Part shown: in pieces, positions 19,848 to 63,878 of the stretch | Position numbering within the stretch: position 1 is the stretch's first letter | Layout: every line of letters starts with the position of its first letter | Origin: a bacterium | GTDB taxonomy: Bacteria > Patescibacteriota > Minisyncoccia > UBA6257 > GWB1-50-10 | Assembly: GCA_030647415.1 (NCBI GenBank) | Contig: JAUSKB010000011.1 | Span: 21,858 to 85,857, forward strand | Length of the DNA stretch: 64,000 bases | Reading direction: 5' to 3' | The notes under the pieces: generated by a model | What the model was told of the DNA's origin: nothing | What the model saw: the letters and a program-made list of their open reading frames with translations, nothing else | Databases searched by the model: none | Translations under genes and position numbers: made by a program

Positions 19848-20011
19848 AAAAAGGTCTCGCGTGATCTCTGTCAGCGAACAACTTGAACTGTTCATGGCAC
19901 TGTTCTTGTGGTTGTTGGGATACCCCCTAACTTCCCCTAGCCCGCAACAGTAACTCCCCCTAGCCCCCTCTTATGAATAAGAGGGGATATGCATTTCCCT
20001 CCTCCCCTTAC

Positions 20012-20407: not shown

Positions 20408-20456
20408 TCTCCCCTTATGCTAAAGGGGGTACCCTCCTAACTCCCCCAACCCCCTC

Positions 20457-26062: not shown

Positions 26063-26103
26063 GAGAATAGTCGCAGTCCGGAGAATTTATTTTATCCCCG
26101 AAA

Positions 26104-27309
26104 TCATACCCCATTTTTAACCGCCAAGATACGTTCGTATTCCTTCACCATCTTATCGCCGTAATTATCCCAGGTAAAACCCGCCAACACTCTTGTTTTG
26201 GCGGACTGTCCCATTGCTCCACGAATTTCAGGATTTTCATAAAGATACAGCAGCTTTTCTTTTAATCCGGCGACGTCGCGGATGGGAATTATAAAACCGT
26301 CTTGTCCTCCCCGCACAATATCTTCCGCGCCCGTATTCGTTGTTGCGATTATGGGCAATCCGCACGCCATTGCCTGAATGATTACCATCCCAAATCCGTC
26401 CTGGATGGAATTCAATACAAAAACCGATGATTGACTATAATAGGATGCGAGCTTACGCTGCGGCACGCGGCCGATCCACCGGTAATGTCCTTTAAATGTA
26501 TCGAAAAACGGCTTTATCTCATCGCTGAAGCCACCGACAAGCAATAGTTCTGAATTAGGAAGATTAAGTTCGGTAAATGCCTGTAGCAGATAGTGCACGC
26601 CTTTTTGTAAAGACATACCGCCGGCATAAACAACCCTGAAAACATCATCGGTTTTGGGGGTTTGTCTAAACTCCGCAAGATCCACGCCATACGGAATATG
26701 GATCAATTTTTCCTCCGGGATGCCGGCATCCAGAAAAGTTCTCCTGACAAACAGCGAAGGAATGGATATGTAGTCCGCTTCTTCGTATTCATTAAGTTCC
26801 TTTTCGATGATTTTTGGATGGGGCAGCTGAAACGGCTCAAGACGAACGCCGAATTTTTCATATTCCTCTTTGAGAATTTTATCCTGATAAAGGATGTGCG
26901 CGCTCCCTCGTTCGATAATGGTGGTGGCACCCAATCGCTTGGCGACAATCAGGCTCTTCAGAGAAGCCGAAGACGCTCCCACAAAAATATCGCATGGCTT
27001 GAGGATTCGCGCCGCTAATCTATCAAAGGTTTCGAGGATAAGAAACTGCGGATTATAGTAGGTGCGCAAAATCGGAATTTTTTGCCAACCCCGCTGAACT
27101 ATTTCCTTACTAATGATCGAATCTGTCTTGTCGCGCGGAATTCCATATTTAACAACTTCAAACTTTGGATAAGAAGTGATGAGCTGTGAAAGGTAGCCAC
27201 GTTTCAAAAGCTGCTGAGCGAGATTGAACAAATGGAACCGACCCGGAACAGAAATTACGACTTTCACGTTTTTGTTATTGAAAAATTGGATTACTTCCTC
27301 ACTATCCAC
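26104..27309 (-). CDS. GT4 glycosyltransferase.
   Basis: C-terminal GFGMVIIQAMACGLPII, a GT-B fold. Lower GC content. Confidence 0.85.
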   Translation of the reverse strand: MDSEEVIQFFNNKNVKVVISVPGRFHLFNLAQQLLKRGYLSQLITSYPKFEVVKYGIPRDKTDSIISKEIVQRGWQKIPILRTYYNPQFLILETFDRLAARILKPCDIFVGASSASLKSLIVAKRLGATTIIERGSAHILYQDKILKEEYEKFGVRLEPFQLPHPKIIEKELNEYEEADYISIPSLFVRRTFLDAGIPEEKLIHIPYGVDLAEFRQTPKTDDVFRVVYAGGMSLQKGVHYLLQAFTELNLPNSELLLVGGFSDEIKPFFDTFKGHYRWIGRVPQRKLASYYSQSSVFVLNSIQDGFGMVIIQAMACGLPIIATTNTGAEDIVRGGQDGFIIPIRDVAGLKEKLLYLYENPEIRGAMGQSAKTRVLAGFTWDNYGDKMVKEYERILAVKNGV

Positions 27310-28295
27310 TCTCCGAGCCTCTGGAAAACACGTAGAGGGGAAATGATAAAAGAAAGAAATTTTTCTTTACAAGAGTAATCACTGAAGAAATCACGAAGTG
27401 CTTTCCATGGCGAACCGGATGCCCGCTTGAGCAACAAATCAAAGAACGTCCCCGCGAGCGTATTGGAGCCTATAAATATCCTCCAGCGGGAAAGGTACTG
27501 GGGTGCGTGGTTCTTATAGAAATAACTGTGTCCAACCTGGTCCATGTGATTGAATTTTATATGGTCGCCAATGGCGCCCCTCGTGAGACCAAAGAACATT
27601 TTCACGGAGTTGCCCTGATGTTCCGTGCTTTCGTAAAATACGTTATCCAGATAATACATAAACTTATAGTCCGCAAGGATAGCCAAAAATATTACGACAT
27701 CCATTATTTTTCCGCCTCTCCGATACGCATTGTCATACCCCCATGTATTGGGAATTATATCCATAAAATGCTTCAGCATATCCCCGCGCCTCACCGTACA
27801 TGCAGTACAAACAATTGCCGGTTTCCTGTAAAAATTACCGAACAAATATGAGGCATCGTAGCGGCCGGGGGGGTGCGTGGTCTCGTTCAAGACGCTGAAT
27901 GTACCATCAGGCTTCGCGAGGTACGTTCGTATCCCGGCACCCACGAACGCAACATCGGGGTACCTCTCAAAAACTCTCATTTTCTCCTCAATGAAGTCGT
28001 CGGTGAGACGGTCATCGCTTCCCAGGTGTTGGACGTACTCACCGGTGGCAAGCTCGAACGTGCGGCCCCAATTGGGGACCATGCCGAGGTTCTTTTCGTT
28101 CCGGTAATACTTGACCCGCGGGTCGCGCGTCGCGTACGCCTTAATGACATCCGGCGTCGAATCGGTGCTCGCATCGTCTACCACTACAATCTCAATATTC
28201 CGATAGGTCTGACGAAGACAAGAATCAATGGATCGTTTGATAAGCTCGGGGCGGTTGTATGCCGGTATGCAGATGGATACTAGTGGGTTTTTCAT
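27291..28295 (-). CDS. GT2 glycosyltransferase.
   Basis: PLVSICIPAYNR, VVVDDASTD and DDR motifs. The ATG at 28295 was verified. Confidence 0.85.
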   Translation of the reverse strand: MKNPLVSICIPAYNRPELIKRSIDSCLRQTYRNIEIVVVDDASTDSTPDVIKAYATRDPRVKYYRNEKNLGMVPNWGRTFELATGEYVQHLGSDDRLTDDFIEEKMRVFERYPDVAFVGAGIRTYLAKPDGTFSVLNETTHPPGRYDASYLFGNFYRKPAIVCTACTVRRGDMLKHFMDIIPNTWGYDNAYRRGGKIMDVVIFLAILADYKFMYYLDNVFYESTEHQGNSVKMFFGLTRGAIGDHIKFNHMDQVGHSYFYKNHAPQYLSRWRIFIGSNTLAGTFFDLLLKRASGSPWKALRDFFSDYSCKEKFLSFIISPLRVFQRLGEWIVRK

Positions 28296-45588: not shown

Positions 45589-46304
45589 CGATCCTCCTTG
45601 GCATTGATACGCTTCTCGAGTTCCGTTCTTATAAACTCAACAATAGTCCCCGGCGACAATTCAATCTTATGTTCAAATTCTTCTTCCTCGGATTCGGCGA
45701 GTTCTTTTTGAAACTCCTTCAAATTTTTTCCTCCATAGATACCCCGATATGATTCGGAATACGCTTTGAAAAAAGGTTCTTTCTCAAGTTCACGCCAGCG
45801 ATCCTTCACTTCGACATACTCGGAACCGAGTGTGATATGGTCCATAAAGTGCACAATTTTTTCATTCCGAGAACGCCCTGCGATGTATTCAGGATCGGCG
45901 CTCACGGGCATGTTAGCATGCGCGACCCGGATGAATTCTTCCGAAAAACCATACTCGCGCAATAGACGGTCATCCTCCTGTACGGTTTTGGTAACACCTT
46001 TTTCTCCGCCGTGCTCCCGGATCGCCTCGACCTCACGCCGCTTATACCAATCATGCAGAAATGTCGCGAGGACGACCGTATCACGATCTGCGTTCAGGTG
46101 CTCCGCCAAAATATCCGCGCCAACTGCGGCAACGAGACAATGTTCTGCTACGTTCCGCCACTCTTTATTATCCTCTCCCAACACGCCGCCTTTTTCCAAG
46201 ATTCTCATCGCACTCAAATGTTTCAGCGCAAATTGGGAAAAATATTCAGTCTTTTTCTTTTCCTTGTCGATTTTTTCTGCGATTAGTTTTTCCATATCGT
46301 TCAC
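45585..46304 (-). CDS. HD-domain phosphohydrolase-like protein, hypothetical.
   Basis: H...LHDWYK (an HD motif). Glu-rich C-terminus. Confidence 0.5.
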   Translation of the reverse strand: MNDMEKLIAEKIDKEKKKTEYFSQFALKHLSAMRILEKGGVLGEDNKEWRNVAEHCLVAAVGADILAEHLNADRDTVVLATFLHDWYKRREVEAIREHGGEKGVTKTVQEDDRLLREYGFSEEFIRVAHANMPVSADPEYIAGRSRNEKIVHFMDHITLGSEYVEVKDRWRELEKEPFFKAYSESYRGIYGGKNLKEFQKELAESEEEEFEHKIELSPGTIVEFIRTELEKRINAKEDR

Positions 46305-46309
46305 AAATA

Positions 46310-47179
46310 TTATATGCTGTCGCGAATATGTCGAATAAAATCGCGCGCTAATGCTTCGGTTGAAGCGATTATAATGGGTAGTTCCTCATGTTGACCGAAT
46401 TCAAAATATTTTTTATCTTGTAAACTCTCTCCATTAAGGTCCACCATAACTCCGCCCGCTTCGGCAACAAAGCCATAGCCTATCGCGGGTTCCAGATTAT
46501 TCTTTGCCGTGCACGTCAAAATCAAATCAACCTTGCCGGAAGCTAAATCGGAAAAATAAGTTGCGTAAGCACGCGGATCCGTTATTTTGAATTGCCGGAG
46601 TTTTTCTGAAAAAACCCGGTGGCACACATCAAAATGTCCGTTCATATATATTCGCGTTCTTTCGCTTAAAATATTTTGCTCGGAAGCGTGAAGAGGAATT
46701 CTGCCTCCTTGCGCATCCAAAAGAAAACTGCCAACGCCTTTTTCGGTGACAAAAAGTTTTCCGGTTGAATGTTCCATAATACCGCTTGTCACGTAATCGC
46801 CATATACGGGGTCGATATTGGAAAATATACCAAGCATCGTTCCGTAACGTTCCTTTCCTCTTCCTGCCTGGTAACGATTGGAACCGTCAAGGCCATCGAG
46901 TATGCCGAGATAGACGGGACTCGGAACGATTTCCACTTTTCCATGTTCCTCCGAAATAACTCTTATTGGGATCCCGCTTTCTTTCAGAAAATCGAGTACT
47001 GCCTCTTCGGCCTCAATATCGATACGCAAGGCTGTTTCTCCAAATTGGTTTTTCTGCACCAACTCTTCACCCCTCGAACCGAGAGCTTCGTGTATTGTAT
47101 ATGCCCGATGTAATGCGGATTGTAAAATCCGCTCAAAATCGTGAACCGTTTCAAATTGTTTTTCTTTCATCTCACTCAC
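46310..47179 (-). CDS. Inositol monophosphatase / CysQ-family phosphatase.
   Basis: ILDGLDGS ... GFVAEAGGVMVD, the IMPase motifs. Confidence 0.75.
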   Translation of the reverse strand: MSEMKEKQFETVHDFERILQSALHRAYTIHEALGSRGEELVQKNQFGETALRIDIEAEEAVLDFLKESGIPIRVISEEHGKVEIVPSPVYLGILDGLDGSNRYQAGRGKERYGTMLGIFSNIDPVYGDYVTSGIMEHSTGKLFVTEKGVGSFLLDAQGGRIPLHASEQNILSERTRIYMNGHFDVCHRVFSEKLRQFKITDPRAYATYFSDLASGKVDLILTCTAKNNLEPAIGYGFVAEAGGVMVDLNGESLQDKKYFEFGQHEELPIIIASTEALARDFIRHIRDSI

Positions 47180-48383
47180 GCAATACTACTATATCATTAA
47201 AAATCAAATCGAGTGCCTCCTTTATTCCTTCTATATCCTTTTCGTGCGAGTAGTGCGCGATGATTTCTTTTGATCTTTTCCCGAAGTTTTCCACGCGCTC
47301 GCGACTCTCTACCAACTTCCTTATGCACTCGGCGAGCTCATCAATATTACCAAGCCGGAATATAAAACCGTTCTCATTTCTATGCACTAGATCCGATCCG
47401 CACCCCACGATATCGGAAACCACGACCGGGAGTCCGAAGCACATCGCTTCATTCACGACCAGTCCCCATGTCTCGCCGATTCCCGAAGGGAGCACAAACA
47501 CATCCGCCACGGCGTAGCATTCCGGGAGTTCTGACTGGTTTTTGAAACCCGCGAACCGGACGTTCTTTAAACCATGATCTTGAGCGTATGCTTCGAGTGT
47601 TTGTCTGAGTTCTCCATCGCCAACGAAGAGTAGGGAGGGGGTAATGGGTAAAGAGTAATGAGTAATGAGTAATTCGTAGGCCTGAAGCAGATCGAGGGGG
47701 CGTTTTTTTCCAATAAGCTTTCCGACGAAGAGAACGAGCGGATGATCCGGCAAAACGCCGAGTTTCTTTTTGAGTTCCGGTTTCTTTCCCACAAACGTCT
47801 TGGCTACTTCAATGTACCGATCGTTTTCGACGGCGTATGGGACAAAGAACAGCTTCTTTTTAGGCACACCATAATACTCATAGAATTTTCTATTCTCCTC
47901 GCCAATGTAGAGAAATCCCGAAACGCGGCGGAACAGCATGCCAAGAATAATTTTTTTTACCGCCCGTTTTCGCCCGCTCTTCAGGGATTCCTGATTCATC
48001 GGATTCTCGCCATGGAGAAGAACTGGGGTCCTGCGAAGAAAGGCGGTTGCAAATGCAAGCCAGTTTGTGAGCGAATTCCACCCATAGACGATTACCGCGT
48101 CATACTTCCCCTTCCACAAAGCCGGAATGATCCCGAGGTTTATCTGGCCAAGGAAGCTCGGACCTGGTTTTAATGAAAAATTTTTCGGGAATAAGTGGCG
48201 ATACCCCTCCGTAAGAATAATGTCCCACTCGATCGCGCACCCGAACTCCGGATCGAACATCTTTTTCGCACCGAAATCCCAGCAAAAGTAGACCGTGAGA
48301 TCGATGCCGGGCATGACCGCGAACTTTCGGAAAAGCGGCGCCTGGTATTGGATCACGTGCGAAGTAAGAATCGCGATTTTCAT
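47172..48383 (-). CDS. GT4 glycosyltransferase containing a heptanucleotide repeat tract.
   Basis: GETWGLVVNEAMCFGLPVV. A tract of five heptamers, G[GA]GTAA[TA] (three perfect GAGTAAT), lies at 47638-47672. Confidence 0.85.
   Translation of the reverse strand: MKIAILTSHVIQYQAPLFRKFAVMPGIDLTVYFCWDFGAKKMFDPEFGCAIEWDIILTEGYRHLFPKNFSLKPGPSFLGQINLGIIPALWKGKYDAVIVYGWNSLTNWLAFATAFLRRTPVLLHGENPMNQESLKSGRKRAVKKIILGMLFRRVSGFLYIGEENRKFYEYYGVPKKKLFFVPYAVENDRYIEVAKTFVGKKPELKKKLGVLPDHPLVLFVGKLIGKKRPLDLLQAYELLITHYSLPITPSLLFVGDGELRQTLEAYAQDHGLKNVRFAGFKNQSELPECYAVADVFVLPSGIGETWGLVVNEAMCFGLPVVVSDIVGCGSDLVHRNENGFIFRLGNIDELAECIRKLVESRERVENFGKRSKEIIAHYSHEKDIEGIKEALDLIFNDIVVLRE
47638..47672. repeat. Heptanucleotide tandem repeat (GGGTAAT GGGTAAA GAGTAAT GAGTAAT GAGTAAT) inside the GT4 CDS.
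   Basis: Read directly. The unit is not a multiple of 3. Confidence 0.6.
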
Positions 48384-50439: not shown

Positions 50440-52323
50440 TCACTGCCATGTGCTTGCAATAGTAGCCGCCCACAGGCGCGACCAGTGGAGATCTCCTGCC
50501 TTGAAGCGGCGGAGGAGTTCCTTGCCATGGGCAGTCGCGAGCAACGGGCGAAACGCGTTATGCTCACCCACCACCGACGCGAGCCACTCGGCGAACGGGA
50601 AGGTGAATCCCATCTTCGGCCGCTGAAACACCTCCCGGGGCACGATATCCCTGACCGCCTCGACAAGGAGGGGCTTATTCACCCCGCCGCGCGGGAACTT
50701 GAGGTCTGCCGGGAGCGAGGCGAGGTACTCGACGAGCGGGTGGTCGAGGAAGGGCACCCGGACCTCGACCGAGTGGTGCATCGCCATGAAGTCGGTGTCT
50801 TTGAGGAGCTGGGATTCGAGATAGCTCTTCAATTCAAGATACGAGTGCGTGTCGGCTGGGTGAAGCGATTCGAGCACCTGGAGCTCGTGGCCTCCGGGAA
50901 CGAGCGATGCCGCGATATCCTCGACCACCGCCAACACCTCCGCTTCGTGCACGCCGAGAAGGGTCGCCGCTTCGCGCGGCGTGAAGAGCCCCCGGACCGT
51001 GAGATACTCGCCGATGAGGTCGCCCCGCATGAGGTACGATGCCTTAGGCGTCCGGCGGCCGAGCATCGCATGAGACGTCGCGAGCGACCGGAGCGCCGCG
51101 GGGAGGTGTGACACGAACCGGAGCGCTCTCGCCTTTCGGAAAGCAGGGTAGCCGAAGAATATCTCATCGCTCCCGAGGCCCGAGAGGACTGCCTTTAATC
51201 CTGCGGCCTTCGCTGCGCCGGCGATGAAGAAGGTGTTCACGCCGTCCACCGTCGGCTGGTCCATCGCTCCGAGCGCCTCGTCGAGCTCACCCATAAAATC
51301 GGCACGGCGGATGCGCGACTCCCGATGGTCGGTCTTCAGCCACCCCGCGACGCGGTCCTGGTAGAGCTTCTCGGAATATGCCGGCTCGTCAAAATTAACC
51401 GAAAGTGTGGTAACCGGTTTCGCGCGACCATGCGCCGCAAGTGCCGTAATCGCTGACGAATCAAGCCCGCCCGAAAGAAAGATGCCGAGCGGCGCGTCGG
51501 AGACGAGGTGGCTTCCGACCGCATCCGAGAGCAGCCGCCGCACCTCATGGGTCGCTTCGGCGAACGAGACGTCCCGTTTCCTCGTGAATGCCTCGAGCGG
51601 GTCGTAGTACCGAACGGTACGGATGGTGCCATCCACTCGCCGCTCCAGGTACGACCCCGACGGCACCGCAGAGACAGCGCGGAGCGTCGTCCAAGGCGAA
51701 GGCACCGACCCGGTGAGGAGAAACCCAATGAGCGCACGGGGGTCCCGTTCCGCCGGCACGAGACCGCTTTCGGCGAGCGCGCCGACGGTCGATGCGAACA
51801 CCACCTGATTGGGCGTTGCCGCGTAGTAGAGGGGTTTGATGCCATACCGGTCCCGAACGAGGTAGAGCATCTGATTTCGAGAATCCCACAGCGCAAATGC
51901 AAACATGCCACGGAGCTTCGAGAATGAAGCGACTCCTTCCCGCGCGAAGAGCGTGAGAATCACCTCCGTGTCGGTTTCCGTGTTGAATCGCTCACCGCGA
52001 GCCACGAGCTCCGCGCGAAGTTCGCGAAAATTGTATATCTCGCCGTTAAAGGTGATAGAAAGAATGCCCCCGGGAATCGAACGTTCCATGGGCTGATGGC
52101 CGGCGGAAGAGAGGTCGATGATGGAAAGCCGACGGTGCCCCAGCACCACTTCGCCTGTCCTGAGCGAAGCCGAAGGACCGCCGCCATTCGCAAGTGGATA
52201 GCTCGCAATCCCCTCGTCATCGGGTCCGCGCCGGACCTGCCGCGCGTTCATCGCCCGAACCGCGCGCTCAATCAATGCGCGGTCGCCCGCCCGAGTCGCT
52301 AGTATGCCGCTGATGCCGCACAT
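50440..52323 (-). CDS. asnB: Asparagine synthase (glutamine-hydrolysing) family amidotransferase.
   Basis: N-terminal MCGI (nucleophile Cys2), and SGGLDSS (PP-loop). Confidence 0.9.
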   Translation of the reverse strand: MCGISGILATRAGDRALIERAVRAMNARQVRRGPDDEGIASYPLANGGGPSASLRTGEVVLGHRRLSIIDLSSAGHQPMERSIPGGILSITFNGEIYNFRELRAELVARGERFNTETDTEVILTLFAREGVASFSKLRGMFAFALWDSRNQMLYLVRDRYGIKPLYYAATPNQVVFASTVGALAESGLVPAERDPRALIGFLLTGSVPSPWTTLRAVSAVPSGSYLERRVDGTIRTVRYYDPLEAFTRKRDVSFAEATHEVRRLLSDAVGSHLVSDAPLGIFLSGGLDSSAITALAAHGRAKPVTTLSVNFDEPAYSEKLYQDRVAGWLKTDHRESRIRRADFMGELDEALGAMDQPTVDGVNTFFIAGAAKAAGLKAVLSGLGSDEIFFGYPAFRKARALRFVSHLPAALRSLATSHAMLGRRTPKASYLMRGDLIGEYLTVRGLFTPREAATLLGVHEAEVLAVVEDIAASLVPGGHELQVLESLHPADTHSYLELKSYLESQLLKDTDFMAMHHSVEVRVPFLDHPLVEYLASLPADLKFPRGGVNKPLLVEAVRDIVPREVFQRPKMGFTFPFAEWLASVVGEHNAFRPLLATAHGKELLRRFKAGDLHWSRLWAATIASTWQ

Positions 52324-52586
52324 TTACCCTGTTAGAATTTTGCAGACATACTCGACTGATGAAAACAGATGTTTGTGTAGCAGGTCAGTGTCCAAAAATT
52401 TGAGTGTGTGCAAAATTCTAACAGGGTGAACCGCATTAGAGTTTTACACATAGACAGTTTCATAAAGATACGTCTTCTAAACCACAAACAATGTTTCATT
52501 CTTTTTCGAGTGTTTGTAAAACTCTAACAGGATAAACCACCGTTGAGTTTTGTACATCCCAGCGACATCTCTAACAGGGTGAATCC
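52324..52586. promoter_or_regulatory. Cluster of the same inverted and direct repeat motif seen at 9142-9267. It lies upstream of asnB.
   Basis: TTACCCTGTTAGAATTTTGCA (52324-44, reverse complement), TGCAAAATTCTAACAGGGTGAACC (52409-32), TGTTTGTAAAACTCTAACAGGATAAACC (52511-38), GACATCTCTAACAGGGTGAATCC (52564-86), and the reverse-complement partner TTAGAGTTTTACACA (52435-50). Confidence 0.5.
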
Positions 52587-53900
52587 CTACTGCCTTGGCG
52601 TCCCCGACGCCGATGGAGACGGGGACGTGTAATGAAACAGTGTGTAGAGTTTGGTAAACGGAATAAATTGTACGGTTGTGTCGTTAATTTTCATTTTACC
52701 CTCATCGCCAAGATGAACAACCAACGCCTTTTGGGGGGCGTATTTCCTGATAAAACTTCTCATGGAGCGCTCAACTGAAGGCGTAGTAATATTTTTATAT
52801 TTCACCTCAATCGGAATGATTTCGCCATCTAATTCGGCGATAATATCAACCTCCGCGCCATCCTTCGATCTCCAAAAACGAGTATCCCCTCCGCTTGATT
52901 GCGTACCGATATGCCTCAATTCATTCGCGATGAAGTTTTGAAATAGAAATCCTCCATCGTTGCTTGAAAGAGTTCTCCCAAAAATACCGCGCGCATAATT
53001 CCGTAACCCGATATCATTGAAATAAATGAGTGGTGATTTAGTGATCTCTTTTCGCGTGTTGCGAAAATACGGATACGCGCGGCGAATCACAAATGTTTTT
53101 TCCGCATACGCGATATAGTTTTTTATCGTGGGAAGAGATATGCCCAGCGTGGAAGAAAGCTCCGTATAATGAACCATATTCCCCGTCTGTTCCGCAAATA
53201 TCTTAATCAATCCTCGAAACGCGTCTATCCGCTCCACATGAAGCAGGTATGAAATATCTCGCTCGATATAACTTTCAAATATTTCGTTTATCACTCGTTC
53301 CTTCTCCCGCGATTCGTCTTCGGTAATAACACGGGGATATCCTCCAAATTGCATATATTCCTGCAGGAATTTTTCGGTGTGTGTTTTTTCAATTTTGAAA
53401 AATTCATCCAGGCGCCCCTCGTACCGATTTTCTGTTTTGAAATTCACAAATTCGCCGAACGAAACCGGGGTCATTTCAAATACGCGCTTTCTCCCCAGAA
53501 GCGATTCGTGTATTTTTTCTTTTAATTCCAAGCTCCCTGATCCTGAAACGATAAATTTATATGGAAGACCCATATCGTACAACCCCTTCAAAAACAATCC
53601 TGCATTTTCTTTTCTTTGAATCTCATCAATAAATACGTACCCGGTATGTTTCCCGAACTCAAGCATGAGTTTTTTTACGAGTGATTCTTGAGAGTCAAAA
53701 AATATTCTGTCGGATTCTACATCAAGATTGAGCCAAACCGTCCGTTCTCCGCGGGAGCGCAGCATATCATCAAGCATACGCATTAGTGTCGTCTTCCCAA
53801 CTTGACGGGCGCCAACAATAAGCGAAATTTCCTTTGCGGAAAGATGCTTTTTCAATAATTCAAATATAGTACGCTTGATAACCGAGTTTTTCAAAACCAT
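52587..53900 (-). CDS. AAA+ superfamily ATPase (AAA_14 with a DUF4143 C-terminal domain). Low-GC gene.
   Basis: Walker A GARQVGKTTL and Walker B VFIDEIQ. AT-rich compared with the cluster. Confidence 0.8.
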   Translation of the reverse strand: MVLKNSVIKRTIFELLKKHLSAKEISLIVGARQVGKTTLMRMLDDMLRSRGERTVWLNLDVESDRIFFDSQESLVKKLMLEFGKHTGYVFIDEIQRKENAGLFLKGLYDMGLPYKFIVSGSGSLELKEKIHESLLGRKRVFEMTPVSFGEFVNFKTENRYEGRLDEFFKIEKTHTEKFLQEYMQFGGYPRVITEDESREKERVINEIFESYIERDISYLLHVERIDAFRGLIKIFAEQTGNMVHYTELSSTLGISLPTIKNYIAYAEKTFVIRRAYPYFRNTRKEITKSPLIYFNDIGLRNYARGIFGRTLSSNDGGFLFQNFIANELRHIGTQSSGGDTRFWRSKDGAEVDIIAELDGEIIPIEVKYKNITTPSVERSMRSFIRKYAPQKALVVHLGDEGKMKINDTTVQFIPFTKLYTLFHYTSPSPSASGTPRQ

Positions 53901-53997
53901 CTCTCAATTTTAGCCCGAGATTTCTACAAGTCAACATCCATTGGTTTTAGCCCATGACTGCGACAATTTAAACATATTCGTATCATTTATACCTATT

Positions 53998-54020
53998 AAT
54001 CGTATCATATTGATACGATT
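53998..54020. promoter_or_regulatory. Palindrome AATCGTATCAtatTGATACGATT of 23 bp. It sits upstream of the ATPase gene and downstream of 54050..54682.
   Basis: The 10-bp arms are perfect. A direct repeat CGTATCAT lies nearby. Confidence 0.35.
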
Positions 54021-54728: not shown

Positions 54729-56123
54729 TTACGCGGCCTGTTTCAGTGGGTTTCCTCCTTTTTCTTTTATCTCTTTTCTTTTTTCATCCTGAATCCTAGT
54801 CACGTACGCCCCGCCGAGTGCGAGGAAAAAGAAGAGGTTGTATGAGATGGGGAGCACATCAAAGAGAACAACGCCCTGCACCAAATAGGCGACGGCAAGG
54901 CCGATGAGGATACTCTCTTCCGTGAGTAATCGCCTGGTAAGCTCAATCTTCCGTGTGCGGAAAAACTGCCAAAAGAACACCACGAACATGCCGAGGTAGC
55001 TTACGAGCCCGAGCGCGCCGGTTTCAACAAGGTAGTCGAAAATGATGCTATGCGCGCGGTCGAACCAGGCGCCAAACGGATTGCCGGGCACGTAGTAGGC
55101 TGTGTCGAAGTGCCGGTCAAAGACCTGAATGTAGTTCTCTGGTCCCCAACCGAGGACCGGACGGTCAAGAAACCCGCGGTAGGCAACACCCCACATGATG
55201 CCTCGCGTCTGGAAGGTCTCGGCGCCGATCGAGATATCAAAGATGCGCGAGATGGGAAGGGATTGGATGAACTGCGTTTGGCGGAACTGCACCGCCACGA
55301 CGAGTAGCACGATAAGAAGCGCGCCACCGGCAAGCAACCGCTTCCGCCATGCCCGGTGGAACCATGCAAAGTAGGCGATGGCGACCGCCGCCGCGACGAC
55401 GAGCGCCACGAGCGCACCGCGCGTCTTTGAGAAGAAGAGAACGGCGATAAAACCCGCGCCGAGAAGCCCGACAAAAAAACTTCCGAGCGAAAGTAGCTTC
55501 CGTTCCCGGTACCGAGCGTGCAACAGGTACGCTAAATATCCCAGAAAGAATATACAGAGCGCCCCGACATACGCGGGATTGCCGATGGAACCCTGGAACC
55601 GGAAACCTGAACCTGATTCCGCAAGCGTTGCGCCCACAAATCCCTGGTACCCATACGCCGCAAAAAAACCGTACACCACCATAAGCACCCCGCCCGCGAC
55701 GACCCACCGGAGCATGCGGCGCCAGTCTTCCGTGCTCGCGAGGAGTGAAGATAAAAGAAAAAAGAAAAGGGACAGATGTAAAACTTGCAGACCGCCCTCG
55801 CCACGCTCGAAGTTGGACCAGAAGGATGCGGCGGGGTCGACCCCAAAAAGTCCTGCAAGAATAAAGAAAAATGAAAAAAGAATAACGGAAATCCCGATAG
55901 GAGAAACGAGTGTCGCCCGGAGACGGGCGAGGTATGGCTTTGCGGCTTCGTGGTTCGCGAGCACGCCGATACAAAAAAGCCCGAGCGAGATTGCCACCGA
56001 CCCCCGGAACCAGGCGTACTTCCCCACGATAAACGGGAAGAGTGTCGAGGGTACCACAATAGCGACGAAGAGCGCCGAGAGGCGGAGGAAGAAAGCGGAG
56101 AGTTTAAACCAACTCATATTCAT
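54729..56123 (-). CDS. O-antigen ligase / Wzy_C-family polytopic membrane protein, a candidate O-oligosaccharyltransferase or polymerase.
   Basis: About 10 TM helices and a Wzy_C-like loop (FSKTRGALVALVVA...). A paralog lies immediately upstream. Confidence 0.7.
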   Translation of the reverse strand: MNMSWFKLSAFFLRLSALFVAIVVPSTLFPFIVGKYAWFRGSVAISLGLFCIGVLANHEAAKPYLARLRATLVSPIGISVILFSFFFILAGLFGVDPAASFWSNFERGEGGLQVLHLSLFFFLLSSLLASTEDWRRMLRWVVAGGVLMVVYGFFAAYGYQGFVGATLAESGSGFRFQGSIGNPAYVGALCIFFLGYLAYLLHARYRERKLLSLGSFFVGLLGAGFIAVLFFSKTRGALVALVVAAAVAIAYFAWFHRAWRKRLLAGGALLIVLLVVAVQFRQTQFIQSLPISRIFDISIGAETFQTRGIMWGVAYRGFLDRPVLGWGPENYIQVFDRHFDTAYYVPGNPFGAWFDRAHSIIFDYLVETGALGLVSYLGMFVVFFWQFFRTRKIELTRRLLTEESILIGLAVAYLVQGVVLFDVLPISYNLFFFLALGGAYVTRIQDEKRKEIKEKGGNPLKQAA

Positions 56124-56302: not shown

Positions 56303-58813
56303 TTAGAGTTTTCTGATTATCTCCCAATTCCCCTTCTCGGCGAGGTCGATCAACACATCCATGTCGTCCGCGATACTCGGGAACGTGCCCTTCATGAATT
56401 TTGCGAGTGCCGCGAAATGCTCTTGGTCCTTTTGGTCAGCATAACGCTTGAGTGCCAGCGTGTAGGTCTCCTGGTCGAGCGCGACAGGCAATGCGCCGCG
56501 CATGCTCCGGTCGATGAGTAATATAAGTTGGTCGTTCTCGCCCAAGCTCGCATAGAGCATGCCGAGTGTCCGAAAATCGGTGTTCATGAGCGTGTTGAGA
56601 CGGGGATTGAGGCGTTCCACCTCGGCGAGCTCCCGCTTCGCCTCATCCTTTTGCCCGCCCGCGTCGAGCATGAGCCCGAGGTGGAAGTGGGCGCGCGCGA
56701 CACGGGTATCAAGCGCGACCCCGCGACGGGCGATGGTAATCGACTCGTCCACCCTCCCCTGTCCGGCGAGATTGAATGCAAGTAGGTAGAAAAGCTCTTG
56801 GCGGGTCGGCGAGAGCTCGAGCGCCTTCCGCAGGTACAGCTCCGCCTTCGCGTAGTACGACTCATCGTCGCGCGCCATCGCGTGGAGCATCGTCGCGTAC
56901 CGGATGTAGTAGCGCACATCGTAGACCGGCTCCCGATCAATCATCTCCTTGGCCCCGGCGAGCAGGAGGTCCCCGACCGCCTTGAACTTCGGGTTCTGCC
57001 GATACGGGTCGTACAGGAAGTACTGATCCTGGTAGATGTTGTCGATACCGACGCCTCGAATATCCTTTTGCGCATAGGTTGTCGGGTACATGCCATCCCG
57101 GAGCCGCGCCGTTACCTTCTTGATATCACCGAGGCCCGGCGACTCCTTGTACGCTCGCGCCTGCGCGTAGGGCAGGGCATTCACGAAGTAGATGCCGCCG
57201 ATGGCGGCAACAAACAACAAACAACAAACAACAAACAACGCATACCGACGGAGCGGGGATGCCGGCGCGGCAGAAACTGACGATAGCGATGCAGGCTCGC
57301 ACCCGCCTGCCCACTTCGCCGGAGCTTCAGCGAGGCGAGCTGGTGAGGTGGGGCGTGCAGCCCACGCAACAAACACCGCAAACGTCAGGTATGAGACTAC
57401 TTGGTCGAAGAGGACGAGATTTTGGACGACATACGAGACGAGGAAGCCGAGGAGAACCGCTCGGACCGCGCCGGCATTCCGCCGCCAGATCAATGCGCCG
57501 AGCGCGACGAGGAGCGAGACGTATGCCACCGTGCCAACGACCCCCTGCGTGACGAGGAGGTCAAACACCTTGCTGTGCGCGCGGTCGAGCCATGTCTCGC
57601 CGTAGTACGCGAATGCGGGGTCGTAATGGCGCTCATACGCGGTGATGTAGTGTTCTGGTCCCCACCCGAGTACCGGCTTTTCGAGGAATGCCTTCCAGCT
57701 GACTCGCCAAGTAATAAGCCGCGTCTCCGTTGAGGCGTCCGACAGGGACTCCTCCGCGGTTACCGCGAGGCGGTTCAATCCGGGAATCGACTGCCACAGC
57801 GGCGCCGTCCGCGTTGTCCAAAAGACGCCCGCGAATACGAAAAGTGCAGCAAGAAGCATGCCCGCGCGAATTCGCCGTCGCTGAACCGAAATATCACCAC
57901 GGTCGCCCCTCTGGAAAAGAGTGAGCACGAGCGCCACGACACCCCCCACCGCAAGGCCGAGCATCGCGCCGCGGGTGCCGGTGAGGAACACAGTGAGCGC
58001 GCCGAGGCCGATCGTCGCGAACGCAAACCACCGCCAGGCGCGCACCAAAAAGAAAAGGGGCAGAGGCGAGATGAGGCGAGACCTTAAAGGAATTCCAAGG
58101 TCTCGCCTCGGGACTGATCTCGCCTCTGTCTCTTTTCTTTTATCTTTTCCCCACACCGACATCCACGCGAACACCATTACAAAGAGGGCGTACGTCGCGA
58201 GGAAGGCGGGGTTCCCGATGAACGATTCGGCGCGATCCTGCGCATGGCGGGCAAATGGAACCCAGGTGATACCGAAGTGCTGGAAAAGACCGTAGAGAAA
58301 AACGACGAACCCGACAAGGACCGTGAGCTTGAGATACCGGCTCCAGTCGCGCGGTCGGAAAAGGGCAAGGAGGAGGCCGCCGAACGTAATGACGTGCATG
58401 ATGCCGATAACCCCCTCCCCTCGCTCGATGTCGCCCCAGAAGGCGCGATAGGGGTCGAGAGAAAACGCCATCGAGATGACAAGGGAAAAAAGAAAAAGGA
58501 TAAGGGAAATACCAAGGGGACTCTTAATCGCTTTCCACGCCTCGGCTCGGGACGGAAGCCCGATGAATCCCGAGGCGAGACGAGGCGAGACCTTAAGGGA
58601 ATTCCAAGGTCTCGCCTCGGGGTTGGTCTCGCCTCGCACCAACGTCCACGCGACAGAAAGCGCGACACAGGCGAGCGCGAGCTCAACGAGCGTCCGGAAG
58701 AGGGCAAGCTTCGGGAAGGCGTAGGGGAAAAAGACGCTCGAATCGATGACAAGCGGCACGAGCACGGTCGCGGTGAGAAACCATCGAGCGAGCGTGAGGA
58801 GACGGCGGGGCAT
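56303..58813 (-). CDS. O-antigen ligase / Wzy_C-family membrane protein fused to C-terminal TPR repeats. It carries two in-frame family B repeat insertions.
   Basis: ATG at 58813 (MPRRLLTLARWFLTATVLV). The Wzy_C region is LTGTRGAMLGLAVGG. The C-terminal 300 aa are TPR-like (YYAKAELYLRKALELSP...). The track ORF extends to 59074 through repeat sequence. Confidence 0.7.
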   Translation of the reverse strand: MPRRLLTLARWFLTATVLVPLVIDSSVFFPYAFPKLALFRTLVELALACVALSVAWTLVRGETNPEARPWNSLKVSPRLASGFIGLPSRAEAWKAIKSPLGISLILFLFSLVISMAFSLDPYRAFWGDIERGEGVIGIMHVITFGGLLLALFRPRDWSRYLKLTVLVGFVVFLYGLFQHFGITWVPFARHAQDRAESFIGNPAFLATYALFVMVFAWMSVWGKDKRKETEARSVPRRDLGIPLRSRLISPLPLFFLVRAWRWFAFATIGLGALTVFLTGTRGAMLGLAVGGVVALVLTLFQRGDRGDISVQRRRIRAGMLLAALFVFAGVFWTTRTAPLWQSIPGLNRLAVTAEESLSDASTETRLITWRVSWKAFLEKPVLGWGPEHYITAYERHYDPAFAYYGETWLDRAHSKVFDLLVTQGVVGTVAYVSLLVALGALIWRRNAGAVRAVLLGFLVSYVVQNLVLFDQVVSYLTFAVFVAWAARPTSPARLAEAPAKWAGGCEPASLSSVSAAPASPLRRYALFVVCCLLFVAAIGGIYFVNALPYAQARAYKESPGLGDIKKVTARLRDGMYPTTYAQKDIRGVGIDNIYQDQYFLYDPYRQNPKFKAVGDLLLAGAKEMIDREPVYDVRYYIRYATMLHAMARDDESYYAKAELYLRKALELSPTRQELFYLLAFNLAGQGRVDESITIARRGVALDTRVARAHFHLGLMLDAGGQKDEAKRELAEVERLNPRLNTLMNTDFRTLGMLYASLGENDQLILLIDRSMRGALPVALDQETYTLALKRYADQKDQEHFAALAKFMKGTFPSIADDMDVLIDLAEKGNWEIIRKL

Positions 58814-58978
58814 GGGGTCAATTATGGAGGAAAAAGGATAAAAGAAAAGAGATGGGAAAGACCAGAGGCGAGAGACCAGAGACGAGAGACGGGTAACACC
58901 GAATACGGGCCCAGAGGCGAGACGAGGCGAGACCTTAAGGGAATTCCAAGGTCTCGCCTCGGGACCGGTCTCGCCTCT
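58062..58978. repeat. Family B palindromic element of about 60 bp, (GAGACGAG)GCGAGACCTTAAGGGAATTCCAAGGTCTCGCCTCGGG..GGTCTCGCCTC, in three copies.
   Basis: Copies at 58062-58126 and 58571-58636 lie inside the CDS, encoding ...EARPWNSLKVSPRLASG... and ...RRDLGIPLRSRLISP.... The copy at 58913-58978 lies in the 5' region. Each has 14-bp inverted arms around GGAATTCC. Confidence 0.7.
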
Positions 58979-59222
58979 CCCGCGACACACCCCGAAGCAC
59001 GTTCGATATATTATTCTCCAAAATACCTGATTTATTCCTCGGCAGCGCCTTCGGCTTACGTATTCAAAACACAAACTATACCCTGAACGTGCAACGGGGT
59101 TCCCGTGGCTGAAACCTCGCCCCGCCAGCCGGCGGGGCTCGGGAAGCCACCGGAAAACTCACCCCCCTCCGACCTAGGTCGGAGGGGGGATGCCGATGCA
59201 GTCAGTACCGGAAGCAGAAGAA

Positions 59223-62200
59223 CTAGTTGTTCTTCGTCGAGAACGAGTCGGACGGCAGCGTCTTCACAAACACGCTGTTCGCCCAGTCCGAAGTCGACTC
59301 CGTGTGACCCACCGCCGAGTTGTCCGACCAGATGAAGGACGGCGCACCGTCGTTGTTCGCGCCGCCGAGGCTGGTTTCAACAGCCGCGGCAGTCGTCGCC
59401 GCAACGAGCGTCGTCTCCGTCTGGTTGAGCTTGACCGACGCGTTCGCGCCGCCCGACCCTGACGCAACAAGGTCAGAGAAGGTGAGCGCAACTTCGTAGG
59501 TCTTCGATGAACCAGCCGCGATGTCCTCCGCGGTGTTCAGGATGAGCGTCACGAACCCGGACGTAGCAGGCACGATCGCCGACGTACTTGAAGTCGTCGC
59601 CGACGTACCCGAGAAGGCCGAGGCGATGTTCAGGTTCGAAGAACCGATCGGCTTCAACGTGACGTTACCCGACGTGCCCGGAACGGCGTTCACCGCCGTC
59701 ATGGTCGCACCGCTCATCGTGACCGCGAGCTGAACCTTCTTCCACGACACCTGCTCGGCAGAATCTGCCGCAACGGTGAAGCGGATGATGGGGGTCAGGG
59801 TCGCGCCGAGGGTCGCACCAGCCGAAGCGACCGTGATGGTCGGCTTCGTCTTGTACGCGACCTTCTGGAAGCCCGTCGCCGCCGTGACGGTCGTGTCAAG
59901 CGCCGATGCGCCCTGCGCCTCGAAGTTCGCGGCCATAACGCTCGCGTAGACCGAGGCACCCGAGTCCGCACCGTTCGAGAAGGAGTTCATGACTCCCTTC
60001 ACGACGAGCGTCTTCGAGGTGTCCTTCGGGATGTTCCACCCGAGGGTTTCAATCACCGCCACACCCGAGCTGTCACCCGAGGCCTGGACGGTGTATCCCG
60101 CCGCCGAGCCGACAGCCGCGCCGTTCGTGTCGTAGAGCTTCACGACCGGCACCTCGTCCGTAGACGCGCCCGAGGTTGCAGTCGCCGAACTCGTGGGAAC
60201 CACGAGGAGCTGGAGCTTGTTCACGGTCATGTCCTCGTTCGTCGCCGTGAAGCGGAACTTCCCGATGACGTTCTCGCGACCCATGATGACGATGCCCGCT
60301 TCGGACTCGGTGTCCGACGGAGCCGTCACCACCGTCACGTCGCCCACGTTGGCGACCGAGACCAGGACCGTACCACCCGAGTTCGCCGCGGTTCCCGTGA
60401 GGGAAACGGCGTTCCCCTCCACGTCGTACGCGGAGATGTTCGCAGACGAAACTGCGGCGATGTAGAACTTGTACACATCACCCACGGTGTCCGACGCCGA
60501 GACATTCCCACGGAGCGTGAGAATTTTCGTCACGCCTGACTCGATCGTGTAGTTCAACGAGTCAAACGTCGCGTCGATGTTCGTGGTGTCGAGCGACTTG
60601 AAGGACGAAATCCGGTTCGTGCCGTCGTAGAGCGCAAGGCTCTGGACGTCACCCGAGTTGAGCGTCCCACTGGTCGCCGAACCCGTCACCTTGATGGTAT
60701 CGATGCGCACCTTGCCCGCGACAGCCCGGAAGCTGAAGCCGGCGAGCGCGACATCGCTCTTGCCTTTCACGTAGGTCTGCGACGTTGGCGTCGAAGACAA
60801 CTGCGTGTCGAGTGAGAGCGCCTTCACCGTCAACGTGTTCCCTGAAATCGTGCTGTTCGGCACGATAACCGAGGTCGCGACGTAGGTGTTGTTATCCAGG
60901 TTCCGAACATCATTCGACTGGAAGGCGAGGAGGTGTACCCGCACGGTCCCGTTCGAGCTGTTCGTGGAGTCCACGTCAGCCGTAACCTTGAACCGCTTGG
61001 ATGTCCCGGCCGAGAGGTTGATGACGTCGGTGAAGGTGACGTTCGTGGACGATGCCGTCGTGACGTTCACCGCCGAGGTAATCAGCGAGTTCCCTGCCGT
61101 GTCCCACACCTTGAAGTCGTTGTAGAGCGCGATCGTACCCGTCGAGGAGACGTTGAACCGGAGGTTCCGGATTTCAACGTTGTTCTGCGAGGCAATCGTG
61201 AAGTCGTAGAGCATCGCGTCCTGCTGGCGGAGGGTGACGTCGCCCGTCACCGGACCGTTGAAGGTGATGGTGAGCTCGCCGCCCGCGACCGTCAGCGTGT
61301 CCGCCTCGCCAGTCGTGTCGATACCCGTGATGTCAGGAAGCACGGGGTAGCCGTAGGTCTTCCCGATCGCGTAGACATCCGACGCGCTGTCGAAGTAAAA
61401 CACGATGGTGTCCGCAGACCGGGTCGTACCCGAGATGTCCGCGTATACCTCAAAGGTGCGCTGCTGACCCTTCTCGAGGAGGAACGGCGTCGTGAAGTTA
61501 AACACGGCGAGGTCCTTCGCGCCGATCGAGGCCGCCGTCGCAACGACGTTCCCGCCCTGCTTCAACATGAAGTTAGACAGGTTTTCGTTCGCGATGGAAC
61601 CACCTTCGGTAATAGCGATACGCTGGACCACGATGTCCTCCGTCGAGCTCGCCTGGAGCATAAACTCCGCGAGCTTCGCACCCTGCTGACCCACCTTAGG
61701 GTTCGAGGGCGCAGCGCCAGAGGTCACGGCAACGCCGCCAACCACCTGGCCGCCGATGGACATCTCATTCCCCATGAGCACTCCGGTCGGGTTTGGCGTC
61801 CCCGCCGCGGAAACGAGCGAGAAGTAGTTCCGGTTCGAAGCAGTCGCGGAACTTGAGATATCCGCCACGAGCGAGAGGGTCTTCACGCCTGCAACCGCAA
61901 TGTTCAGGTTCAGGAAGGTGACCTCGTGCGTCGTGGAGTTGATGCTCCGGCCGTTGGTGAGACGGGTCATACCATCGTAGAGGTAGATGCCCGCCGAGCC
62001 GAAGTCGGATGTCGAACCGATGCCGAGCCGCTTGAAGGTGAGCGAGGAGAGCGTGCCGGTCCCCGAAACGTTGAATTTGAGGAAGACGACGCCCGTCGCA
62101 CCCTTCGGAATCGACTGTGCAATCGGGTTGTCAGCCGCGAGGCTGACGCTAAAGCCGGACGGAGCCGGGCCGGGGCCTGGGCCTGGACCTGGACCGGGGC

Positions 62201-62621: not shown

Positions 62622-63016
62622 TATGTTGTTTGTTTTAGTTATTTTTGACTCACTCCTTTTTTTCCCATCTGGCAGAGTCGTCCAGACGGAATATATCGAC
62701 CTTTTTTCAGGAATCACCGCACGCGCTCGTCGTCGCAACTTCCCTGGAGTGAGGATCGGGAGTGCTGGAGCGCACACGATGGGCAGTATCAAAAGAAAAA
62801 GCCTCGCTTCGGGTGCTCCGAACGAGGCGAACAATGCCGCATGACGGCAAAACCCTGCCCCATCTGGCATCGGGGCATCGGGTCGCCGAAAAACGAGCTT
62901 CGCCTCACACGAAGCAGATGATACCTACCGCTCAAAAGTTCAGTCGTTTACAGTATTTTCAGCGGGTATCACTAGAGAAAACGACCGAATGACCGCATTG
63001 TTACGGAGTAATCGCT

Positions 63017-63095
63017 AATAATGCGAATGTAACTCAAATAATGCGAATAAATGCGCATTTCATTCGCATTATTACTCTGCTATTCGCATTATTCG
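63017..63095. promoter_or_regulatory. AT-rich nested palindrome (AATAATGCGAATAAATGCGCATTTCATTCGCATTATT with flanking extra arm copies). It sits upstream of the surface-protein gene and downstream of 63105..63878.
   Basis: Arms AATAATGCGAA/TTCGCATTATT around a near-palindromic centre AAATGCGCATTT. Additional copies of each arm lie at 63017-30 and 63081-95. Confidence 0.4.
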
Positions 63096-63104
63096 CGATT
63101 ACTC

Positions 63105-63878
63105 CTAGATGGACCACGGAACCGTGGAGAAGAGGAGGAGCGTCCCGAGGACGCCGGCGAGGACCCCCTTCAGAACGGTCGTACGGGTAATCTCCCCGAG
63201 CGCCGCGAGGGAAATGGCCTCTCGGGCAAGCACGACGACCAATGTTGTGAAAAGCGCCTGCCCGAGCACGGTGAGCGGTAGAAGCCCGGCAATGAGGATG
63301 GTCTGGAACGAAAGGAGCGCGAGCACACCAGCGGCGAGTATGGCATGATGCCGCGTGAGGCGGGGAGACCGATGCCGAAACCGCTCATAGTACACCGCGG
63401 CGATGATTCCCACAGTCCCGAGACGGACCGCAAGTATCTGAATAAGATTCGCCGAGACGCCTACCGAGCTCGTGAGGAGCGCGGCGATGACCACGACCTC
63501 CATCGTGAACACCGTCTCGAGGAGCCCTGCCGTGAGGGAAGTGTGCCGAACGACAAGCCGGGCGATTGCCGATACTGCTCCCACCGCCGCGGCGGAGGCA
63601 ACCGCCCATACGAGGAGTGCGAGCGTGTTGAACCCGGAAACGACCGGGAGCGGCAGGAGCACGCCGAAAACTACGGCGAACCCCAAAACCGCGGCGCCGC
63701 TCCGCGGGGGTGCGGCGAGGAATACGAGTGTGAGGAGCGCCGCGGCGGCGAGGAATACGAGCCACCAGGGTGCCCCGGCAAAACCCACGAGCGCGAGTAT
63801 GAGCGCCGCGAGCGCCGCTCTACCGAACGAGTGCCACGGTTCGGTCCTTGGTAAGAATCGCCTGAATCTTTCCACCAT
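63105..63878 (-). CDS. Hypothetical polytopic membrane protein. Its start is uncertain, because the ORF overlaps the 3' end of the clpB-like gene by about 59 nt.
   Basis: The hydrophobic Ala/Leu-rich ORF could be partly a GC-rich artefact. Confidence 0.35.
   Translation of the reverse strand: MVERFRRFLPRTEPWHSFGRAALAALILALVGFAGAPWWLVFLAAAALLTLVFLAAPPRSGAAVLGFAVVFGVLLPLPVVSGFNTLALLVWAVASAAAVGAVSAIARLVVRHTSLTAGLLETVFTMEVVVIAALLTSSVGVSANLIQILAVRLGTVGIIAAVYYERFRHRSPRLTRHHAILAAGVLALLSFQTILIAGLLPLTVLGQALFTTLVVVLAREAISLAALGEITRTTVLKGVLAGVLGTLLLFSTVPWSI

Follow-up and report, generated by a model that had tools for sequence, protein, structure and literature searches.

Insertion sequences (ISs) of the IS200/IS605 type are multi-copy and autonomous, carry imperfect subterminal hairpins and use a Y1/HUH enzyme for single-strand transposition without target duplication. 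In the REPIN-RAYT system, repetitive extragenic palindromic (REP) sequences form doublets that fold into hairpins (REPINs) and are mobilised by REP-associated tyrosine transposases (RAYTs) (Bertels and Rainey, PMC3116915; 10.1101/2021.07.10.451892); the system occurs in roughly 10% of bacteria, and classical REPINs are almost exclusively extragenic (10.1101/2021.07.10.451892). REPs have also been reported inside genes, including many that act in replication and repair, and RAYT-like genes may be flanked by REPs or by longer inverted repeats of moderately abundant families (Di Nocera et al. 2013, PMC3733652). A further precedent is provided by the Rickettsia palindromic elements (RPEs), which lie in frame in unrelated, often essential Rickettsia genes (Ogata et al. 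2000, summarised in PMC10969869). Here we describe a palindromic repeat, family B, in a 64-kb stretch of contig JAUSKB010000011.1 from a bacterium of the Candidate Phyla Radiation (CPR, Patescibacteria). This stretch, the window, is the available source-genome sequence, and window counts refer to those 64 kb. Two of the three copies of family B lie inside a gene for an O-antigen-ligase-like protein (Wzy_C-TPR), and we regard family B as probably a palindromic repeat of REP-doublet (REPIN) type, non-autonomous and specific to its lineage. The relevant features of the window are as follows.

58062..58127, minus strand: copy 1, a nested palindrome in the Wzy_C-TPR coding sequence, encoding residues 230-252 (EARSVPRRDLGIPLRSRLISPLP)
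58571..58636, minus strand: copy 2, in the Wzy_C-TPR coding sequence in the other stop-free frame, encoding residues 60-82 (RGETNPEARPWNSLKVSPRLASG)
58913..58978, minus strand: copy 3, intergenic, upstream of the Wzy_C-TPR gene
58855..58895, minus strand: one-sided relic, a tandem of GACCAGAG[G/A]CGAGA units matching the left terminus of the family B element
56303..58813, minus strand: the host gene, Wzy_C-TPR (836 aa), with an O-antigen-ligase-like Wzy_C membrane domain and C-terminal TPR repeats
54729..56123, minus strand: a paralogous Wzy_C gene (464 aa) without either insert, which serves as an internal empty-site comparison
59162..59189, minus strand: a perfect 14+14-nt palindrome followed by TGAGTTTTCC, bordering the intergenic region with copy 3

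A preliminary description of this DNA had reported a near-identical element in three copies within about 900 bp. Repeat detection and a reading of positions 57700-59300 agree: the three copies are in register, 90-94% identical and in the same orientation, with start-to-start spacings of 509 and 342 nt. The unit, measured from the first to the last paired base, is 66 nt (22 codons) rather than the 60 bp first given. Its inverted arms, described as 14 bp long, do include inner arms of 13-14 nt that pair perfectly around an 11-nt centre (AAGGGAATTCC), but the structure is nested and has additional outer arms of 10-11 nt. The layout is thus [A/C]GAGGCGAGAC, GAGGCGAGACCTT, the 11-nt centre, AAGGTCTCGCCTC, a 7-nt bulge and GTCTCGCCTC[T/G]. 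Because the bulge lies on the same side in all three copies, they are direct repeats. The 33-nt core occurs three times in the window against an expectation of 0.00 from 100 dinucleotide shuffles, and 13 of the 16 occurrences of the 10-mer GAGGCGAGAC in the 64 kb (at most one mismatch) fall within 58063-58977. The 5′ region had been thought to hold a third copy and a degenerate fourth; copy 3 is indeed there, whereas the fourth (58855-58895) comprises the left terminus only (CCAGAGGCGAGA, then a short tandem, with a match to GAGGCGAGAC at 58865-58874 carrying one mismatch) and, having no complementary arm, is a half-element relic and not a palindrome.

The RNA folding proposed earlier as a check was consistent with this picture, as each copy forms a single long hairpin (-47 to -51 kcal/mol, z -5.2 to -8.2); folding of the copies as single-stranded DNA gave -26 to -29 kcal/mol (z -7.0 to -8.1). 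Just outside copy 1, another two 10-nt stretches, AAAAGAAAAG (58048-58057) on one side and CTTTTCTTTT (58132-58141) on the other, are complementary to each other. A scan of 57800-59300 against Rfam returned no family, only spurious, far-sub-threshold microRNA-precursor matches due to the hairpin shape. Nor does the full hairpin qualify as an intrinsic terminator, since no T-run follows it on either strand; the sole terminator-scan match in the element is to a sub-stem, with the loop taken as its 'tail'. CRISPR, attC and dif/lox-type sites were also considered for the hairpins and dropped: the spacer varies between 7 and 17 nt, and neither an array nor a nearby recombinase is present.

The 836-aa Wzy_C-TPR product is identical to NCBI MDO8469667.1, and the two inserts leave its open reading frame (ORF) unbroken. 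The family B element has a stop in one of its three frames on each strand, and copies 1 and 2 occupy the only two open frames on the gene strand. That they do so in different frames marks the repeat as one of DNA and not of protein. We aligned 14 sequences (the window protein, 12 homologs and the paralog encoded at 54729-56123) and found that both segments are missing from the paralog and from every homolog at <=56% identity; the copy 2 segment is likewise missing from the proteins designated P0003-P0005. The two insertion sites fall in gap-rich loops of variable length. An AlphaFold2 model of the 836-aa protein built from this alignment had a mean predicted local distance difference test score (pLDDT) of 84.5 and a predicted template modelling score (pTM) of 0.84. 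Two of its five segments with pLDDT <50 (67-81 and 233-249) lie inside the element-encoded residues 60-82 and 230-252, and the copy 2 residues sit between membrane helices H33-60 and H77-97. According to this model, the roughly 23 extra residues that each element encodes are disordered or low-confidence inter-helix loops. The earlier claims that two copies are in frame in the Wzy_C-TPR gene, in different frames and with the ORF open, and that this represents palindromic insertion into coding sequence, are therefore borne out by frame and residue mapping, by the alignment to the paralog and other Wzy_C proteins, by the loop model and by the differing frames. Together, these data show that the odd segments of an intact Wzy_C-TPR gene are repeat-derived.

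The edge of copy 3 (58913) lies 99 nt upstream of the Wzy_C-TPR ATG (A at 58813) and downstream of the terminator-like palindrome of the preceding gene; this palindrome (59162-59189) is likely the intrinsic terminator of that upstream 1215-aa gene. A scan for sigma-70 promoters around copy 3 found none. As a separate observation, the coding stretch beside copy 1 (58129-58148, KDKRKE) is complementary at 19 of 20 positions to 58833-58852, in the pyrimidine-rich 5′ leader of the same gene, and a similar leader (78% over 45 nt) precedes the gene starting at 54682. This complementarity could be a low-complexity coincidence or reflect long-range pairing.

The closest ortholog of the Wzy_C-TPR protein (P0002, 68% identity) comes from locus L017 of an independent assembly (Logan SRR22387853). 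L017 carries copy 2 at the orthologous position and a partial copy 3 at the contig end; copy 1 is missing, and the locus cannot be aligned to the window around it. The presence of copies 2 and 3 in L017 places both before the split of the two lineages, and the sequence comparison shows copy 1 as a presence/absence difference between the window and L017. The preliminary description had held that homologs carrying the same segments would speak against insertion; this single closest ortholog does carry the copy 2 segment, all others tested do not, and insertion is not refuted. To judge from the aligned sequences, stem pairing of family B is preserved by compensatory changes: the outer arms of copy 1 pair GAGAT with ATCTC where copies 2 and 3 pair GAGAC with GTCTC, and the inner stem of copy 2 has changed from GAGACC/GGTCTC to GAGGCC/GGCCTC in L017.

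To place family B more broadly, we scanned one genome per GTDB species with the pattern GGCGAGACCTT-N7-15-AAGGTCTCGCC. This returned 16 loci, 11 of them in metagenome-assembled genomes (MAGs) of CPR bacteria (Vogelbacteria, Paceibacterota and Saccharibacteria). All 11 CPR loci have flanking AA..TT, as against none of the five non-CPR matches. In other CPR bacteria a 13-nt core, AAGGCGAG(A/G)CCTT, recurs in inverted doublets dispersed over the genome, frequently in frame in housekeeping genes; it is common to CPR classes (Saccharibacteria and Paceibacteria-type MAGs). With the A/G arm variant allowed, a metagenome scan found 77 loci, of which 63 are unique with complete flanks. The arms co-vary among these 63 copies (42 G/C, 18 A/T, 3 G/T and 0 A/C). 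Beyond the 13-nt arm, positions 2-6 are complementary in 46-65% of copies, compared with about 25% in a shifted control, and complementarity is at background from position 7 onward. The 13-nt arm of family B, GAGGCGAGACCTT, matches the core at 12 of 13 positions; the nearest relative of family B is locus L062 (CGAGGCGAGGCCTTAAGGGCACCCAAGGCCTCGCCTCGG). The core AAGGC-GAG-GCCTT is itself a 5-bp mini-hairpin, and the family B arm, GAGGC-GAG-ACCTT, shows only imperfect self-pairing within a single arm. Scans of viral contigs yielded no doublets, only one unrelated tandem match to GAGGCGAGAC without a palindrome.

Residence within genes is common: about 35 of 84 unique copies (~40%) lie in open frames of at least 200 aa. 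Hosts of in-frame doublets verified with Pfam are LigA, Dus, GltX, TopA, PilM, Tgt, UvrB, a PIF1-like helicase, ArgS, LeuS, MetG, RlmN, TsaD and Wzy_C. In LigA, alignment identifies the hairpin-encoded stretch as a 7-residue insertion relative to the E. coli protein. The TsaD gene of L071 (1590-2960, minus strand) appears to contain several in-frame palindrome-derived segments (GEALRLGSKASP, GSTLHPSLKVEP, GKALHPRLKALP and GSTLHPSASRRIKVEP). Core doublets are present in or next to Wzy_C(-TPR) genes of three independent lineages: in L039 (5585-5614) the doublet precedes a Wzy_C-TPR start by 114 nt, in L054 (2703-2738) it lies inside a Wzy_C gene, and the third case is that of the window (58062-58978). 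These Wzy_C doublets may exceed what the gene's share of a ~1-Mb genome would lead one to expect, reflecting either loop tolerance or a real preference.

We then clustered all ORFs in the fetched doublet loci and took the most widely shared family further. This is a protein of 215-241 aa whose gene lies 0-27 nt from the doublet in five loci (L008, L023, L042, L048 and L059) and 461 nt from it in the RlmN group. Pfam assigns the family to Y1_Tnp (IS200-like; 1.7e-9, with 38.2 bits for L008 against a cut-off of 23), and its sole NCBIfam match is the REP-associated tyrosine transposase model NF047646. The protein has an HUH motif (NHFH) and a conserved tyrosine-containing motif, YxHxNP, whose sequence is consistent with a catalytic tyrosine motif. 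In all five loci the core motif is present on both sides of the transposase gene, and on a 775-kb contig the transposase (L023) is flanked by a doublet of which further copies lie at three places elsewhere on the contig (L020, L039 and L040). A search of the PDB with the protein sequence gave no match.

Protein database searches returned 6646 relatives of this RAYT-like protein, several named Parcubacteria, Nomurabacteria or Kaiserbacteria. As an unbiased neighbourhood test, four homologs were picked without regard to the motif (L095-L100). All four are from CPR genomes, two of them labelled Kaiserbacteria and Nomurabacteria, and all four occupy one slot (EF-P, sigma-70, RecA, FtsK ... L10, L7/L12), which suggests that the gene is vertically inherited. 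Short palindromes particular to each gene, such as TTGCGGAGGCCTTTCCTCCGCAA, CTCCCTAGGCCGGGCCTAGGGAG and CAAAGGGTACCCCTTTG, border it on either side.

Two of the transposase loci merit description in their own right. The RAYT-like gene of L042 (2408-3106, minus strand) carries an in-frame core doublet (FQGEALGISQGLALESW) and has, 22-25 nt beyond its ORF, a single core on one side and the complement of that core on the other, in the manner of terminal inverted repeats. On the 775-kb contig (Ga0265297_10000016), core and centre are the same or almost the same in the four copies (GTAGCTAC in three copies, GTGGCCAC in L040); their outer flanks differ from copy to copy, and within each copy 5-8 nt of the flanks are mutually complementary.

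The rlmN gene offers a view of how such elements behave over time. Nine orthologous RlmN loci share a 49-nt palindrome whose stem is fully conserved (44 of 44 positions) and whose variation is limited to the central loop; conservation of the flanks is lower, at 217 of 307 positions. Relatives at 72-92% identity present, in the same loop, empty, insert-bearing, 'flip', half-deleted and inner-palindrome-only states as well as other palindrome families. The flip form has its two 13-nt cores swapped, an arrangement that inversion of the whole element cannot yield. This multiplicity of allele states shows that elements are gained, lost and rearranged at the codon level while the gene stays unbroken. 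The hot spot is the loop between CxxxCxxC and GMGEP (L044, L102, L103, L104 and L105). Insertion at the apex of a pre-existing target hairpin was considered as the source of the complementary flanks that vary between copies and is unsupported at RlmN, where the empty allele (AAA AAA|GAA) is non-palindromic and the outer stem TGGCA/TGCCA arrived with the insert.

These observations provide the basis for our preferred, REPIN-like account of family B, in which the element is best read as tolerated in protein loops, by analogy with the RPEs of Rickettsia. A RAYT-like enzyme encoded elsewhere in the genome would recognise the arm hairpin in single-stranded DNA and would copy or move the doublet without target duplication. 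Selection would then keep those copies whose length is a multiple of three and which lie in an open frame, in tolerant loops or in intergenic DNA; the occurrence of copies 1 and 2 in both of the open frames is expected if only harmless insertions survive. Intergenic copy 3 may incidentally alter the stability or translation of the Wzy_C-TPR mRNA.

Several findings weigh against this account. No RAYT-like gene is present in the 64-kb window (best tblastn E 0.13), so that we infer the enzyme link for family B; it rests on the shared 12-13-nt arm and the architecture, with no cognate gene. Members of the transposase family score 24-49 bits with NF047646, below the curated RAYT cut-off of 80. The family B arm begins with G, not A, which makes it a minority subtype (3 of the 63 metagenome copies), and the four-arm nested form was seen only in the window and L017. 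There is no consistent GTAG or CGTC tag and the flanks beside the core vary, CGTC being found only in copies 2 and 3, where the inner and outer arms meet. Moreover, all copies in the window (three and one relic) lie within 920 bp at one gene, and two of the three are inside coding sequence, whereas classical REPINs are almost exclusively extragenic (10.1101/2021.07.10.451892).

A more far-reaching version would see an ancient, phylum-wide REPIN-RAYT-like partnership in Patescibacteria, its hairpins kept in essential genes by selection or by hairpin-based copying. The core in distant CPR classes, the invariant RlmN stems amid synonymous drift and the flip isomer, with both of its arm loops swapped, point in this direction, and we regard the idea as possible, if doubtful. 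Family B in the Wzy_C gene would then be one local outcome.

Other explanations of family B are in our view less likely than the REPIN-like one. The hairpins might be cis elements specific to this gene, either regulatory (RNase III or attenuation) or for phase-variation recombination, that were duplicated locally. Such a role would fit the clustering of all copies at one gene, the conservation of copies 2 and 3 in the 68% ortholog and the doublets at Wzy_C-type genes in two other lineages (L039 and L054), and the contrast between RlmN stems and flanks does indicate constraint at the nucleotide level. However, the same core is found in many unrelated genes and intergenic sites and beside a transposase, and copy 1 is absent from the ortholog. 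As for recombination, the copies are direct repeats, between which it would delete and not invert, and no recombinase is encoded among the four scanned neighbours (an AAA_14/DUF4143 ATPase, a TPR protein, the Wzy_C paralog and a PG_binding_1 protein). We therefore judge a gene-specific site unlikely. Somewhat more improbable still is a classical miniature inverted-repeat transposable element (MITE), that is, a deletion derivative of an IS with a DDE transposase, bounded by terminal inverted repeats and target-site duplications. Family B is short, palindromic, repeated and non-coding alone, as MITEs are, and its outermost arms could be terminal inverted repeats. Yet the copies have no consistent flanking direct repeat (GGGGC..GTCTC, GAATCC..CACCAA and GGGCCC..CCCGCG), the conserved part is the middle of the stem and not its termini, and the only transposase associated with the shared core is of Y1/HUH type.

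Selection at the protein level, with a peptide module reused in a membrane protein, could draw on the similarity between the copy 2 peptide and its counterpart in the ortholog (RGETNPEARPWNSLKVSPRLAS and RGETGPEARPWNPFKASPRLAS). Against it, the different reading frames of copies 1 and 2 yield unrelated peptides, both of which model as low-confidence loops and are missing from the paralog and other homologs, and copy 3 lies outside the annotated coding sequence; we find this explanation very hard to sustain. Palindromes can also come from amplification or assembly errors in metagenomes, and a repeat-collapse chimera or foldback had been raised as a concern at the outset. An artefact of this kind is scarcely credible here: the independent L017 assembly has orthologous copies at the same two positions with substitutions of its own, the deposited MDO8469667.1 agrees, the Wzy_C-TPR ORF is intact and models well, and related doublets are found at about 90 loci from many projects.

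How, then, does the REPIN-like account of family B and its CPR relatives stand against the systems already described? The likeness to REPIN-RAYT lies in the architecture (two inverted short units and a short spacer giving one long hairpin), in near-identical copies within a genome with each lineage having its own repeat sequence, and in the CPR Y1/HUH gene, which is flanked on both sides by the repeat and sits in a fixed slot in the four genomes examined. RAYT-like genes flanked in this way are the pattern described for RAYTs and REPs (10.1101/2021.07.10.451892; PMC3733652). There are also differences. Classical REPINs are ~100 bp long and number hundreds per genome, whereas the CPR elements measure 35-66 nt, with few copies observed per genome; classical copies are almost exclusively extragenic, whereas ~40% of the CPR copies detected are in long ORFs; the 13-nt core is common across CPR classes and there is no GTAG tag; and the CPR transposase is longer (220-240 aa) and falls below the curated RAYT cut-off. 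The arrangement of core, RAYT-like gene and complementary core in L042 recalls the REPtrons and TIRtrons (RAYT/TIRYT), but those bear GTAG/CGTC tags and are reported mainly from Proteobacteria, Cyanobacteria and a few other phyla, with CPR not covered (PMC3733652), and in the CPR elements it is the hairpin top, not a foot tag, that is conserved.

With the RPEs, the CPR elements share in-frame insertion that adds a tolerated peptide segment in a host with a reduced genome (PMC10969869). RPEs are ~100-150 bp long and found only in Rickettsia, as opposed to 66 nt and a host placed in the CPR by its protein homologs for family B; no dedicated transposase is known for them, whereas the CPR elements are linked to a Y1 transposase family, and the two have no sequence relationship. 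Y1/HUH chemistry and recognition of a DNA hairpin are shared with IS200/IS605 and its palindrome-associated miniature derivatives, and fit the absence of target-site duplications; the CPR gene differs in its fixed syntenic slot, as for a domesticated RAYT.

In-frame palindromic inserts were known already, the RPEs of Rickettsia being the most familiar case (PMC10969869), as were intragenic REPs and REP-flanked RAYT genes (PMC3733652). What is new here is the CPR-wide core, the high intragenic fraction, the lack of a GTAG/CGTC tag and the distinct RAYT-like subfamily; our literature search did not find the core sequence, nor relevant work joining RAYT/REPIN with CPR or Patescibacteria. If the REPIN-like account is right, ultra-small CPR bacteria carry a REP-type system whose repeats are frequently inside genes, including essential ones. 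This would account for some of the odd insertions in CPR proteins and would caution annotators and structure predictors over repeat-derived loops. It would also offer a tractable enzyme-substrate pair, the RAYT-like protein and the 13-nt hairpin, for testing REP movement.

The window contains other repeats. Family A palindromes (CCCCTTAT..ATAAGGGG, with GGTTAC-type flanks) occur at 19944-21260, in frame in a 380-aa glycosyltransferase-like ORF (20457-21599, minus strand), where four 36-nt units in tandem (20704-20847) specify a repeat of 12 aa (PLTDxVGLGPxP). A small DUF559-like ORF (20012-20407, minus strand) is likewise flanked by them. With family A, this genome would have two repeat families that lie in frame in cell-envelope genes. 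Large tandem repeats with 300-nt and 267-nt units (5863-8179; 3-4 copies, 72-85% identical, period ~333/660 nt) probably belong to a repeat-domain surface protein. Neither family A nor family B is related to a 47-nt inverted repeat at 63005-63105, which is 81% complementary around a 7-nt spacer and contains many ATTCGCATTATT motifs. Finally, G+C content falls to 0.445-0.46 at 26001-28000, 46001-48000 and 52001-54000, compared with 0.55-0.62 around them; the 52-54 kb dip, which may be acquired DNA, covers the AAA_14/DUF4143 ATPase gene (52587-53900) beside the Wzy_C cluster.

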